Below, one piece after another: positions 45,001 through 51,000 of a stretch of 64,000 nt of DNA. Positions within the stretch are counted from its first letter, which is position 1, and the number at the start of each line of letters is the position of its first letter. Origin of the DNA: Escherichia coli (GTDB lineage: Bacteria > Pseudomonadota > Gammaproteobacteria > Enterobacterales > Enterobacteriaceae); assembly GCF_003334335.1 (NCBI RefSeq), contig NZ_QOWQ01000028.1, one strand, 5' to 3'. Made by a program: the position numbers.

Positions 45001-48000
45001 TTTCTGGTAGTCGTTATTCGTTCAGGGTTCAAGAACTTAAGCCTCTCCTCTTTCATAATTGGCCTGTGCATGGAGAAATAGCCTGGTTATTCCCTGCCCC
45101 ATGCTAAGAGCGCAGTGTCTGTCGCATAGACACTGCATACGAAAACACCAGAGGGTGCTGTTACTTATTTAAGGACGGATCAAGCGGGAATGAGTCCACT
45201 CCGGTATCAGAAATGGCTACGTCTCAATGAAGTCAGGCGACAGATGCTGAATGAACATTACGATGTCACCACAGCAGCCTATGCTGTCGGTTACGAAAGC
45301 TATCCCATTTCAGTCGGGAATATTCGCGGATGTTTGGAGAGTCACCCAAGAGAGATATTACCAGGTTAAGAAAGTCTGTCGGACAGCTTTAATAAACCCT
45401 GCACTTATCTGTTTAGAGCAATTCGGTGTTAGTTTCAGCAAGCAAACATTAACCATAGCTAATGATTTATAGCCATATTAACCATTGGTAGCTCTTGACC
45501 TTTCCTGACACTTCCCTTGTTCGCAATAATATTCTGTTTAGTCACGGTTTATAAATAACATGCATAATGAAATCGTCATGTTATTTAGCGACATAAAATG
45601 TTTTTGCAAATACTCTCTTCAACAAGTGCAGCAATAAACTTGTTGTGGAACCAATATCCAGGTCGCAGGATATCGCTATTCTACGCAAGGTTTTTATAAC
45701 TTATCCGACAGTGCCTACAGTCGAATGAGTGGTTACACCGTCAAGCCTCCTACCGGAGACACCAATGAGCAGACACAATTTATTGATTATTTTAATCTGT
45801 TCTACAGTAAGCGTGGTCAGGAACAAATAAGCATCTCTCAGCAGCTTGGAAATTACGGTACGACATTTTTCAGTGCCAGTCGCCAAAGTTACTGGAACAC
45901 GTCACGCAGCGACCAGCAAATATCATTTGGATTAAATGTGCCGTTTGGTGATATTACGACTTCGCTGAATTACAGCTATTCCAATAATATATGGCAAAAC
46001 GATCGGGATCATTTACTCGCTTTTACGCTTAATGTTCCCTTCAGTCATTGGATGCGTACAGACAGTCAGTCGGCATTTCGTAATTCAAACGCCAGTTACA
46101 GTATGTCAAACGATTTGAAAGGCGGCATGACCAATCTATCGGGGGTTTATGGCACTCTGCTGCCGGATAATAACCTGAATTATAGCGTTCAGGTCGGTAA
46201 CACCCACGGAGGTAATACATCGTCTGGCACCAGTGGTTACAGTTCTCTTAATTATCGTGGAGCTTATGGTAATACTAATGTCGGTTACAGTCGGAGTGGT
46301 GACAGCAGCCAGATTTATTACGGAATGAGTGGTGGGATTATTGCTCATGCTGATGGCATCACCTTTGGACAGCCGCTGGGCGACACAATGGTTCTGGTTA
46401 AGGCTCCTGGTGCTGATAATGTCAAAATAGAGAACCAGACCGGAATTCATACCGACTGGCGTGGCTATGCCATATTACCATTTGCGACAGAATATAGAGA
46501 AAACCGTGTTGCTCTTAACGCGAATTCCCTTGCAGATAATGTTGAACTGGATGAAACCGTGGTCACTGTCATCCCAACTCACGGTGCTATTGCCAGAGCA
46601 ACATTTAATGCACAAATCGGCGGGAAAGTATTAATGACGTTGAAGTACGGTAATAAGAGCGTTCCATTCGGTGCAATTGTCACACACGGAGAGAATAAAA
46701 ATGGCAGCATTGTCGCGGAAAATGGTCAGGTTTATCTGACTGGACTTCCACAGTCAGGGCAATTACAGGTTTCATGGGGCAAAGATAAAAACTCAAACTG
46801 TATTGTCGAGTACAAGCTTCCTGAAGTTTCTCCTGGTACCTTACTGAACCAGCAGACAGCAATCTGTCGCTAAGGAACAATAGATTATGAAATACAATAA
46901 CATTATTTTCCTCGGTTTATGTCTGGGGTTAACCACCTATTCTGCTTTATCCGCAGATAGCGTTATTAAAATTAGCGGGCGCGTCCTCGATTATGGCTGC
47001 ACAGTCTCATCGGATTCGCTTAATTTTACCGTAGATCTCCAAAAAAACAGTGCCAGACAATTTCCAACGACCGGTAGCACAAGTCCAGCCGTCCCTTTTC
47101 AGATTACGTTAAGTGAATGCAGCAAAGGGACAACGGGGGTTCGGGTTGCATTTAACGGTATTGAGGATGCAGAAAATAATACTTTGTTGAAACTGGATGA
47201 AGGAAGCAATACGGCCTCCGGTTTGGGTATAGAAATATTGGACGCAAATATGCGTCCGGTGAAACTGAATGATCTTCATGCCGGGATGCAGTGGATCCCA
47301 CTGGTACCAGAACAGAACAATATTTTGCCTTACTCCGCTCGTCTGAAGTCAACTCAGAAGTCCGTCAATCCGGGACTGGTGAGGGCTTCGGCAACCTTTA
47401 CCCTTGAATTTCAATAATCAGAGTCAGATATGAAAAGACTTCACAAGAGGTTCCTGTTAGCTACGTTTTGCGCGTTATTCACAGCAACTCTCCAGGCCGC
47501 CGATGTCACTATCACTGTTAATGGTCGGGTAGTCGCTAAACCCTGCACTATTCAAACCAAAGAAGCTAACGTTAATCTCGGGGATCTTTATACGCGCAAT
47601 CTGCAACAACCTGGTTCTGCATCTGGCTGGCACAATATTACTTTGTCATTAACCGATTGTCCGGTTGAAACAAGTGCAGTGACGGCAATCGTGACAGGTT
47701 CAACTGACAATACGGGTTATTACAAAAATGAAGGTACTGCCGAAAATATTCAGATAGAGCTGAGGGATGACCAGGATGCTGCGTTAAAAAATGGCGATAG
47801 CAAAACGGTTATTGTTGATGAGATCACTCGTAATGCACAGTTTCCACTTAAGGCAAGAGCTATCACGGTGAATGGAAACGCAAGCCAGGGAACGATCGAG
47901 GCGCTAATCAATGTGATCTACACCTGGCAATAACGTCGATTCGATTTTCTTAGCCTTCTTTTTAAATCAATTTTTAACCTTAGGATATATCATGGGTAAA

Positions 48001-51000
48001 ACAATCAGTATAAAGGTCCTGTTCGGTATTTATCTTCTATTAATGGCAGGCAAAGTTTTTGCCTTCAGTTGTAATGTCGATGGCGGGTCAAGTATTGGAG
48101 CAGGTACAACCTCTGTTTATGTTAATCTCGACCCTGTAATACAGCCGGGCCAGAATCTGGTTGTAGACTTGTCTCAGCATATAAGTTGCTGGAATGATTA
48201 CGGCGGCTGGTACGACACTGATCATATAAACCTGGTACAAGGCTCAGCTTTCGCAGGCTCCCTACAGTCATATAAAGGATCGCTGTACTGGAATAATGTG
48301 ACCTACCCCTTCCCGTTGACGACAAATACCAACGTATTGGATATTGGTGATAAGACACCGATGCCATTACCGTTAAAACTCTATATTACCCCAGTTGGGG
48401 CGGCCGGTGGAGTTGTCATAAAAGCGGGGGAAGTCATTGCCCGTATTCATATGTATAAAATTGCAACATTAGGAAGCGGAAATCCGCGTAATTTTACGTG
48501 GAATATTATTTCAAATAACAATGTTGTTATGCCAACAGGCGGCTGCACCGTTGATAGTCGTAATGTCACCGTGGATCTCCCGGACTTTCCTGGAAGCGCA
48601 GAAATACCCCTTGGCGTATATTGCTCAAGCGAACAAAAGCTCTCATTTTATCTTTCGGGTGCCACCACTGACAGTAGCCGACAAGTGTTTGCTAACACAG
48701 CACCTGATGCAACAAAAGCATCGGGAGTGGGTGTCACTCTAATGCGTAATGGAAAAATACTGGCTACGGGAGAAAATGTCTCCCTGGGGACAGTAAATAA
48801 AAGCAAAGTACCTCTGGGTTTAAGCGCAACCTATGGACAAACAGGAAACAAGGTTTCAGCCGGAACCGTCCAGTCAGTCATTGGTGTCACTTTTATCTAT
48901 GAATAATTGTGATTTTGACCTTAGTCTATGCGCTCCATTCACGAAAATTGCGCGGATAATTATTTTGTGAAGGCTATTAGCCTACACCTGTAAGAAAATC
49001 CGCGCACAATTGAAGCCAGAGTCTTATTTTTTATATTGAAAAATATGTTAATTTAAACACTATGAGAGATGATGCTTAACTTATCGTATTTAATCTATTG
49101 TTTAACGATAATAGATTAAAAATAGAAAGAGAGTAGTCCCCTACTCTTATATATCCATGTTGGCGATAATCCCTTTGTATGTACTGTGCATCATCGCTAT
49201 TACAAATCCTAATAATTCATTTCCACACAGGATAAGTAGATGAAGAAAAAAATTGAATCCTACCAGGGTGCTGCAGGTGGTTGGGGTGCTGTTAAATCCG
49301 TAGCGAATGCAGTACGTAAGCAGATGGATATACGCCAGGATGTTATTGCCATGTTTGACATGAATAAGCCAGAGGGCTTTGACTGTCCGGGTTGTGCATG
49401 GCCAGATCCTAAGCACAGTGCGTCATTCGACATTTGTGAAAACGGCGCAAAAGCAATCGCCTGGGAAGTCACGGATAAGCAGGTAAACGCCTCTTTCTTT
49501 GCTGAGAATACGGTTCAATCATTACTTACCTGGGGAGACCACGAGCTTGAGGCTGCGGGGCGACTCACTCAGCCTTTGAAATATGATGCCGTCAGCGACT
49601 GTTACAAGCCATTAAGCTGGCAACAAGCTTTCGACGAAATTGGCGCACGCCTTCAAAGCTATAGTGATCCCAATCAGGTTGAATTCTATACTTCGGGCCG
49701 CACTTCCAATGAAGCTGCCTTTCTTTATCAGCTTTTTGCCCGTGAATACGGGAGCAATAACTTTCCCGACTGCTCCAACATGTGCCATGAACCGACAAGC
49801 GTGGGTTTGGCAGCGAGTATCGGTGTAGGTAAAGGGACCGTGTTGCTGGAAGACTTTGAGAAGTGCGATTTAGTCATTTGCATTGGGCATAACCCTGGTA
49901 CAAACCACCCTCGCATGCTGACTTCGTTGCGCGCTTTAGTGAAACGGGGAGCGAAAATGATCGCCATCAATCCTCTACAGGAACGTGGCCTGGAGCGATT
50001 TACCGCACCGCAAAACCCGTTTGAAATGCTGACGAACTCTGAGACTCAGTTGGCCAGTGCCTACTATAACGTGCGCATTGGTGGCGATATGGCGTTGCTC
50101 AAGGGGATGATGCGCCTGTTAATTGAGCGCGATGATGCTGCAAGCGCCGCAGGTCGGCCTTCATTGCTTGATGACGAGTTTATTCAAACGCATACCGTCG
50201 GCTTTGACGAGCTACGCCGTGACGTTCTCAATTCCGAGTGGAAAGATATCGAACGTATTTCTGGACTAAGTCAGACACAAATCGCCGAACTGGCTGACGC
50301 ATATGCCGCTGCCGAACGCACCATTATCTGTTACGGAATGGGGATCACTCAGCACGAACATGGTACCCAGAACGTACAGCAACTGGTCAATCTGCTGTTG
50401 ATGAAAGGTAACATTGGCAAGCCTGGTGCGGGTATCTGCCCACTACGTGGACACTCTAATGTACAGGGCGACCGAACCGTCGGTATCACCGAGAAACCGT
50501 CTGCAGAGTTTCTGGCTCGTCTGGGTGAGCGCTATGGCTTCACCCCACCTCATGCACCTGGACATGCTGCAATTGCCAGCATGCAAGCAATATGTACGGG
50601 GCAGGCTCGAGCATTGATCTGCATGGGGGGCAATTTTGCGCTGGCAATGCCAGATCGGGAAGCGAGCGCTGTACCGTTAACGCAATTAGATTTGGCGGTA
50701 CACGTAGCCACTAAGCTTAACCGCTCTCATCTGTTGACCGCACGGCATAGCTATATTCTGCCGGTCCTGGGACGTAGCGAGATTGACATGCAAAAAAACG
50801 GTGCGCAGGCGGTAACCGTTGAGGATTCAATGTCGATGATTCATGCCTCGCGTGGCGTGTTAAAACCCGCCGGTGTAATGCTGAAATCAGAGTGTGCAGT
50901 GGTCGCGGGAATCGCGCAGGCAGCACTACCCCAGAGCGTGGTAGCCTGGGAGTATCTGGTGGAAGATTATGATCGCATTCGCAATGACATTGAAGCTGTG

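Follow-up and report, generated by a model that had tools for sequence, protein, structure and literature searches.

A 64,000-nucleotide (nt) stretch of Escherichia coli DNA (NCBI RefSeq assembly GCF_003334335.1, contig NZ_QOWQ01000028.1; hereafter the window) carries what is left, at the 3' end, of the chaperone-usher pilus operon F9/Fml (Yde), in which one deletion has removed the genes for the rod and its assembly and left ydeS, ydeR and ydeQ, encoding two adaptor subunits and the tip adhesin. The remnant is very probably neutral and slowly decaying, its tip genes being intact through the recency of the loss. With the major rod subunit gone, along with its dedicated chaperone and the usher's N-terminal half, no F9 pilus can be made from this locus on its own. 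Sequence comparison shows ydeS, ydeR and ydeQ to be full length and wild type, the K-12 alleles being the same as those of strains with a working operon.

The window sequence is of the E. coli K-12 type, with 100% identity to K-12 derivatives over the 7-kb stretch around ydeT'-ydeQ, and the RefSeq annotation of an identical genome gives the gene order hipB-hipA-(helix-turn-helix pseudogene)-ydeT'-ydeS-ydeR-ydeQ-ydeP-safA-ydeO. In a urine isolate with a complete locus, the same flanks (hipBA and ydeP) surround six genes, namely a FimA-like major subunit gene, a periplasmic chaperone gene, a 2,652-nt usher gene, ydeS, ydeR and ydeQ; Wurpel 2014 (PMC3966885) describes the same flanks for the F9 operon. 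The window locus is a remnant of this operon and not a complete member: all that is left of it is a pair of minor-subunit genes, the adhesin gene and the final 1,226 nt of the usher, and neither ORF (open reading frame) calls nor RefSeq annotation yielded a chaperone gene or a major-subunit gene there. Within the usher pseudogene ydeT', an ORF that opens at 45725 aligns to positions 496-877 of usher model NF011740 (877 positions in all) with 415.9 bits against a cut-off of 995 bits, and signal peptide, N-terminal domain and plug are all missing; the locus thus has neither the cognate chaperone nor the full-length usher needed for assembly in cis. Downstream stand three complete ATG-to-stop ORFs, ydeS, ydeR and ydeQ, whose products match solved structures with E-values down to 5e-107 and which are therefore not chance ORFs. 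The original prediction, made from the window sequence alone, had described them as complete frames with signal peptides lying downstream of a truncated usher with no chaperone, and it holds in each respect: the coordinates are exact, hydrophobic leaders precede the mature N-termini, RefSeq likewise treats ydeT as a pseudogene, and the comparison with intact genomes agrees.

Alignment of the window to an intact locus (L002) resolves the loss to a single 3,280-bp event (Table 1). In L002 the left end of the deleted segment reads ...cttgttgtg/attaggtg... and the right end ...ccagacag/gaaccaat...; the two ends share only 1 nt of microhomology, and the comparison of the window with L002 revealed no insertion sequence (IS) remnant or scar at the junction. 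The deletion was an illegitimate event, after which the f9 leader runs from nucleotide +73 directly into mid-usher sequence. It took away the remaining leader, the genes for the major subunit and the chaperone, and about 1,425 nt of usher sequence, owing to which the N-terminal ~475 codons of the usher are absent from the K-12 copy.

The deletion starts only at +74, and the f9 promoter lies outside it. In CFT073 rapid amplification of 5' cDNA ends placed the f9 start at a G that precedes the ATG of the major subunit by 251 nt, with a -10 element CATAAT and a -35 element TAGTCG separated by an 18-bp spacer (Wurpel 2014, PMC3966885). The same layout is found exactly 251 nt upstream of the ATG in the intact L002 and in L023 (a B2-type locus, with TAGTCG); the window has it with TAGTCA as the -35 element, and a consensus scan of the window arrived at the same promoter. 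According to the same study, f9 is directly repressed by H-NS at 37 °C and is expressed at 20 °C in CFT073, and six H-NS motifs are predicted in the f9 region; from their reported positions we infer that five of the six (-111, -103, +8, +14 and +57) fall within the retained DNA. Since the deletion begins at +74, it has produced a promoter-leader-'ydeT-ydeS-ydeR-ydeQ fusion, and judged by homology to the mapped promoter the remnant is not promoterless. Transcription of this native K-12 fusion is not reported in the literature found, which on expression or phenotype of the native K-12 genes was limited to gene lists, one paper on a chassis with operon deletions and an over-expression screen that is unvalidated.

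Table 1 Features of the F9/Fml remnant in the window (positions are those of the window)
Feature	Position	Strand	Description	Basis
f9 promoter	45539..45575	+	-35 TAGTCA 45539-45544; 18-bp spacer; -10 CATAAT 45563-45568; start G 45575	Homology to the mapped CFT073 promoter
f9 5' leader	45575..45647	+	First 73 nt, kept up to the junction	Window compared with intact L002
Deletion junction	45640..45656		TTGTTGTG/GAACCAATA; break 45647/45648	Comparison with intact L002
ydeT'	45648..46873	+	F9 usher pseudogene, C-terminal ~408 codons	RefSeq 'incomplete, missing N-terminus'
ydeS	46887..47417	+	FimF-like adaptor, 176 amino acids, intact	NCBIfam FimF equivalog
ydeR	47430..47933	+	FimG-like adaptor, 167 amino acids, intact	NCBIfam FimG equivalog
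ydeQ (fmlH)	47992..48906	+	F9 tip adhesin, 304 amino acids	Pfam and crystallised FmlH
ydeQ, signal peptide	47992-48063	+
ydeQ, lectin domain	48064-48543	+	Galactose (Gal)/N-acetylgalactosamine (GalNAc) lectin domain
ydeQ, pilin domain	48544-48903	+
ydeQ, stop codon	48904-48906	+

The products of ydeS and ydeR are adaptor subunits of the FimF/FimG type, both by equivalog score and by N-terminal donor strand. YdeS reaches 239.7 bits against the NCBIfam FimF equivalog (cut-off 200 bits) and has FimF as its best solved relative (E = 3.9e-39), while YdeR reaches 256 bits against the FimG equivalog (cut-off 220 bits) and aligns best to FimG (E = 6.5e-60). The N-terminal donor strands of YdeR (ADVTITVNGRVVAKPCT) and FimG (ADVTITVNGKVVAKPCT) are one residue apart (R for K). 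The mature N-termini of the solved homologues align to A23 of YdeS (FimF) and A24 of YdeR (FimG), each with a hydrophobic leader before it.

YdeQ has the two-domain, FimH-like architecture that had been predicted, with FimH_man-bind (PF09160) at residues 27-171 (E = 1.2e-77) and Fimbrial (PF00419) at residues 185-302. Its mature N-terminus, F25, follows a hydrophobic leader and aligns to residue 1 of both FmlH and FimH, and its pilin domain aligns end to end with that of FimH, so that the lectin domain, the incomplete immunoglobulin-type pilin domain and the cleavable signal peptide of a FimH-type tip adhesin are all present. Over residues 25-184 it agrees with the crystallised FmlH lectin domain at 159 of 160 positions (6AOW/5LNE, E = 5e-107; 6AOW and 10 further crystallised FmlH entries were matched), the sole difference being N in place of S at mature position 153. 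The residues of the binding site were compared with those of FmlH, as the original prediction had proposed, and no inactivating pocket substitution was found. Kalas et al. 2018 (PMC5866590) name F1, D53, K132 and N140 as sugar contacts of FmlH, Y46 and R142 as hot spots, and 10-15, 44-53 and 132-142 as binding loops; none of the six is missing from K-12 YdeQ or from any of the 21 alleles compared, and position 153 is outside the loops. By this near-identity YdeQ is FmlH with an intact predicted binding pocket, an equation also drawn in a 2025 review, and the K-12 protein would be expected to bind Gal-beta-1,3-GalNAc/GlcNAc (GlcNAc, N-acetylglucosamine). Locus, promoter, FmlH match and the account of Wurpel 2014 together support the earlier identification of an F9/Fml pilus operon disrupted in K-12.

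The main question is why the reading frames have stayed intact. The K-12 proteins YdeS, YdeR and YdeQ (WP_000876763.1, WP_000825452.1 and WP_000520676.1) have the same accessions in L009 (strain 93_0495), a genome with all six operon genes annotated intact; that of YdeS is also common to the intact-operon genomes L008 and L017, and that of YdeR to L008 and L018. Over the 2,020 bp of ydeS-ydeQ, K-12 and L009 differ at two positions, both synonymous, and against 12 intact-operon sequences the K-12 haplotype has one change of its own, C to T at nt 387 of ydeS, which is synonymous. In genomes with a complete operon the three genes are under strong constraint, with a ratio of non-synonymous to synonymous substitution rates (dN/dS) across the species of ~0.05-0.3 overall and 0.02-0.06 in the lectin domain. 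Because the K-12 proteins are identical to those of a complete-operon strain, the preserved frames need no special explanation, and because the K-12 alleles are the functional alleles, the absence of decay says nothing about selection. Protein identity of this kind shows that the frames have not yet decayed, and is not evidence of maintenance by selection. The original prediction was right that the adhesin frame is preserved despite apparent loss of function; with proteins the same as those of a complete-operon strain, this is not remarkable.

L007 (NZ_CP045977.1, strain INSC1002, 2600-7240) is 100% identical to K-12 over ydeT'-ydeQ, including the T at ydeS nt 387, and it keeps the 3.3-kb segment, but in a form that is dead by another route: its chaperone gene has a stop at codon 124, its usher gene is frameshifted, and it lacks ~660 bp that take in the promoter and the 5' end of the gene for the major subunit. 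Inactivation of the haplotype may therefore predate the K-12 deletion or be independent of it. L003 (NZ_CM134208.1, urinary isolate 126, 3001-6410) combines the K-12-type junction, hipBA and ydeR with ydeS/ydeQ alleles of other lineages, differing from K-12 at 30 positions in 2 kb; the downstream genes seem to be exchanged by recombination between backgrounds with and without the deletion. In the junction-bearing L005 (NZ_OY754453.1), 6 nt of ydeQ (TGTTTA) are duplicated in tandem near codon 41, within the lectin domain and without loss of frame.

The deletion is widespread. Among 5,426 complete E. coli genomes, a 300-bp junction-spanning probe was covered in one piece in 1,375 (25%), MG1655 and ATCC 8739 among them, and a 65-nt junction probe was found in 1,380; the deleted 3.28-kb segment is present at >=80% coverage in 3,538. 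That F9 is disrupted in K-12 is already published, and the feature is in this sense already known: Wurpel 2014 (PMC3966885) lists it as 'disrupted' in K-12 MG1655, DH10B, BW2952, ATCC 8739, HS and B strains and reports disruption in every phylogroup A genome examined there, and Wurpel 2013 counts 12 chaperone-usher clusters in K-12, 9 of them intact. What is added here is the junction at base level, how often it occurs among 5,426 genomes, the finding that the K-12 proteins are the same as those of intact operons, the retained promoter and a catalogue of secondary and alternative routes of decay. A junction 2-4 nt from that of K-12, CTTGTTG/ACAGGAACC, occurs in L004 (NZ_CP159530.1, 'plasmid' pZYS9073-A, ~3140-3160) on a haplotype otherwise typical of intact-operon strains; the L004-specific probe matches 1 of the 5,426 genomes, and the record is a linear 298-kb 'plasmid' with chromosomal genes; the junction could represent an independent, near-identical deletion or an assembly artefact. 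The idea of a deletion hot spot, to which this junction had given rise, was dropped on account of the single genome and the suspicious record.

Genomes of the junction class have sustained further damage: IS1 has entered ydeQ twice, at different sites, IS5 has entered ydeS, and in L016 (NZ_CM129523.1, strain DAM; 3415-3974) an internal deletion fuses ydeR to ydeQ. In a small sample of evenly spaced rows of the ranking, IS or deletion damage was seen in 3 of 16 junction-bearing rows and in none of the 41 that lack the junction (Fisher p = 0.019). Each of the nine loci without the junction that were retrieved from this evenly spaced sample has six intact genes, as have L002, L008 and L009. L026 (H129; NZ_CM143728.1, 1395-2617) was left out of the Fisher count; it had been a candidate for a junction-bearing locus with secondary damage and was rejected when annotation showed a separate, larger deletion running from the f9 leader into ydeQ, which leaves only an N-terminally truncated adhesin gene and is another independent erosion. 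L016 has also lost a further 18 nt across the K-12 junction, between two CAATA repeats (~1610-1640); its junction was considered as a third type and rejected, being best explained by secondary 18-nt slippage between the CAATA repeats that flank the K-12 junction.

The 3,280-bp deletion took the genes for rod subunit and chaperone and half of the usher gene, and the three tip genes survived it. If the remnant is neutral, any transcription would start from the retained f9 promoter, which H-NS represses; YdeS, YdeR and YdeQ would mostly be degraded in the periplasm for want of their cognate chaperone; and the frames would stand intact without selection. Several points weigh against this account. 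The degradation of unchaperoned subunits belongs to the general knowledge of chaperone-usher systems. The promoter is retained, so ydeS, ydeR and ydeQ may still be expressed, and FmlH can be displayed by the type 1 machinery, which K-12 possesses, so the absence of function is unproven. The enrichment of IS and deletion damage comes from a small sample whose members are phylogenetically non-independent. In a 21-sequence alignment of junction-bearing and intact-operon sequences, the coding changes private to the junction class are four synonymous and four non-synonymous, too few (n = 8) to tell neutrality (binomial p = 0.11) from the purifying regime of intact operons (p = 0.14); the class has in addition one in-frame 6-nt duplication and one intergenic change of its own.

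One alternative is rescue in trans, in which f9 would be de-repressed (at low temperature or low H-NS) while fim is phase-ON, FimC would chaperone YdeQ, YdeR and YdeS, FimD would incorporate them, and some type 1 pili would carry galactose-binding FmlH tips, making the remnant a functional tip cassette. When full-length CFT073 FmlH was expressed in a K-12 strain with the K-12 fim cluster and inactivated fimH, the variants V33E and F63E, which lock it in the active state, gave strong galactose-inhibitable adhesion (PMC8064603), so that FimC/FimD can assemble FmlH. The original prediction that the tip genes are stranded without assembly machinery therefore stands in cis but not in trans, where FimC/FimD of K-12 can display FmlH. 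K-12 YdeQ has the same L32, V33 and F63, its pilin domain is 55% identical to that of FimH, the donor strand of YdeR is a single residue off that of FimG, the f9 promoter and start site are kept, and F9 is expressed at 20 °C in CFT073 (Wurpel 2014). However, binding by wild-type FmlH was undetectable in the same system, which moreover relied on plasmid expression without competing FimH (PMC8064603); in the literature found, neither expression nor a phenotype is described for the native genes of K-12; and in other genomes that share the junction, IS insertions and deletions affecting ydeS, ydeR and ydeQ are tolerated. We consider such rescue unlikely. Its broader form is quite improbable: that the f9 promoter, ydeS, ydeR and fmlH make up a still-usable tip cassette in K-12 and the ~25% of E. 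coli genomes that carry the deletion, from which FimC/FimD load FmlH, perhaps with YdeR and YdeS, onto type 1 pili once the temperature is low or silencing by H-NS is lifted. If true, it would yield hybrid pili with galactoside specificity and spare the cost of a second rod, chaperone and usher.

A function outside the pilus, for example in the periplasm or under stress, could also keep the three frames open, and ydeQ is indeed among the ASKA over-expression clones enriched under hydrogen peroxide (H2O2) and hypochlorous acid (HOCl) (PMC8228696), with frames intact in most of the sampled junction-bearing genomes. That screen match is unvalidated and depends on over-expression, however, and the proteins are identical to those of intact operons, with nothing pointing to a new function; the junction class has secondary disruptions, and the 4:4 substitution pattern decides nothing. 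Such a role is very unlikely. Least probable of all, with nothing found in its favour, is that the K-12 alleles are cryptic pseudogenes, already inactivated by subtle substitutions in the pocket or the pilin groove: the three proteins are identical to those of a complete-operon genome, the six pocket residues occur in 21/21 sequences and the N153/S difference is outside the binding loops, by which this reading is already refuted at the sequence level.

The neighbourhood of the remnant shows other traces of erosion and regulation. Just upstream of the f9 promoter (45184-45392) lies a frameshifted, N-terminally truncated pseudogene of a helix-turn-helix regulator, which is also found in genomes with an intact F9 operon; its decay is therefore older than, and unrelated to, the 3.3-kb deletion. 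Adjoining hipBA, at 41511-43061 and upstream, is the C-terminal part of an ECSE_1600-family autotransporter, frameshifted in the annotation of K-12-type genomes and intact in some others (for example, ATCC 8739 and EC6622), a second eroded surface-protein gene beside hipBA. In the ydeQ-ydeP spacer, a promoter-like TTGAAG-16-TATATT at 49010-49037 coincides with the constitutive RpoD promoter of ydeP and the H-NS site of Shimada et al. 2014 (PMC3946193).

These findings leave current understanding unchanged. In practical terms, K-12 is the standard host in which fimbriae and adhesins are expressed, and in urinary tract infection FmlH is a target for drugs and vaccines; users of K-12 may wish to know that the strain carries a wild-type fmlH behind a retained H-NS-silenced promoter, together with type 1 machinery able to display FmlH. 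This background fmlH could matter in hns mutants, in low-temperature experiments and in fimH-deleted hosts. The locus also offers a clean and datable case of operon erosion: a quarter of sequenced E. coli genomes share one deletion allele, several secondary hits have occurred independently, and the same haplotype shows at least one further route of decay.

Among known systems, the closest is the intact F9/Fml/Yde operon (CFT073 c1931-c1936; UTI89 fml; tip adhesin FmlH), which has the same hipBA-ydeP position and promoter as the window and whose last three genes are orthologous to ydeS, ydeR and ydeQ, with all Gal-binding residues kept in the near-identical lectin domain; unlike the intact copy, K-12 is without the major subunit, the chaperone and the first part of the usher. 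Other disrupted or cryptic chaperone-usher loci of K-12 are likewise core-associated, H-NS-silenced and often eroded in phylogroup A and laboratory strains, but at F9 the erosion took the assembly genes and spared the adhesin and adaptors. The type 1 tip fibrillum FimF-FimG-FimH shows the same order after the usher (adaptor, adaptor, adhesin), with YdeS and YdeR passing the FimF and FimG cut-offs and YdeQ sharing the two-domain architecture of FimH. Compared with FimH, YdeQ is ~50% identical overall, 46% in the lectin domain and 55% in the pilin domain; the published FmlH-FimH identity is 41% (PMC8064603). The two adhesins differ in their ligands, FmlH binding beta-linked Gal/GalNAc in a wide, shallow pocket capped by Y46 and FimH binding mannose in a deep one (PMC5866590).

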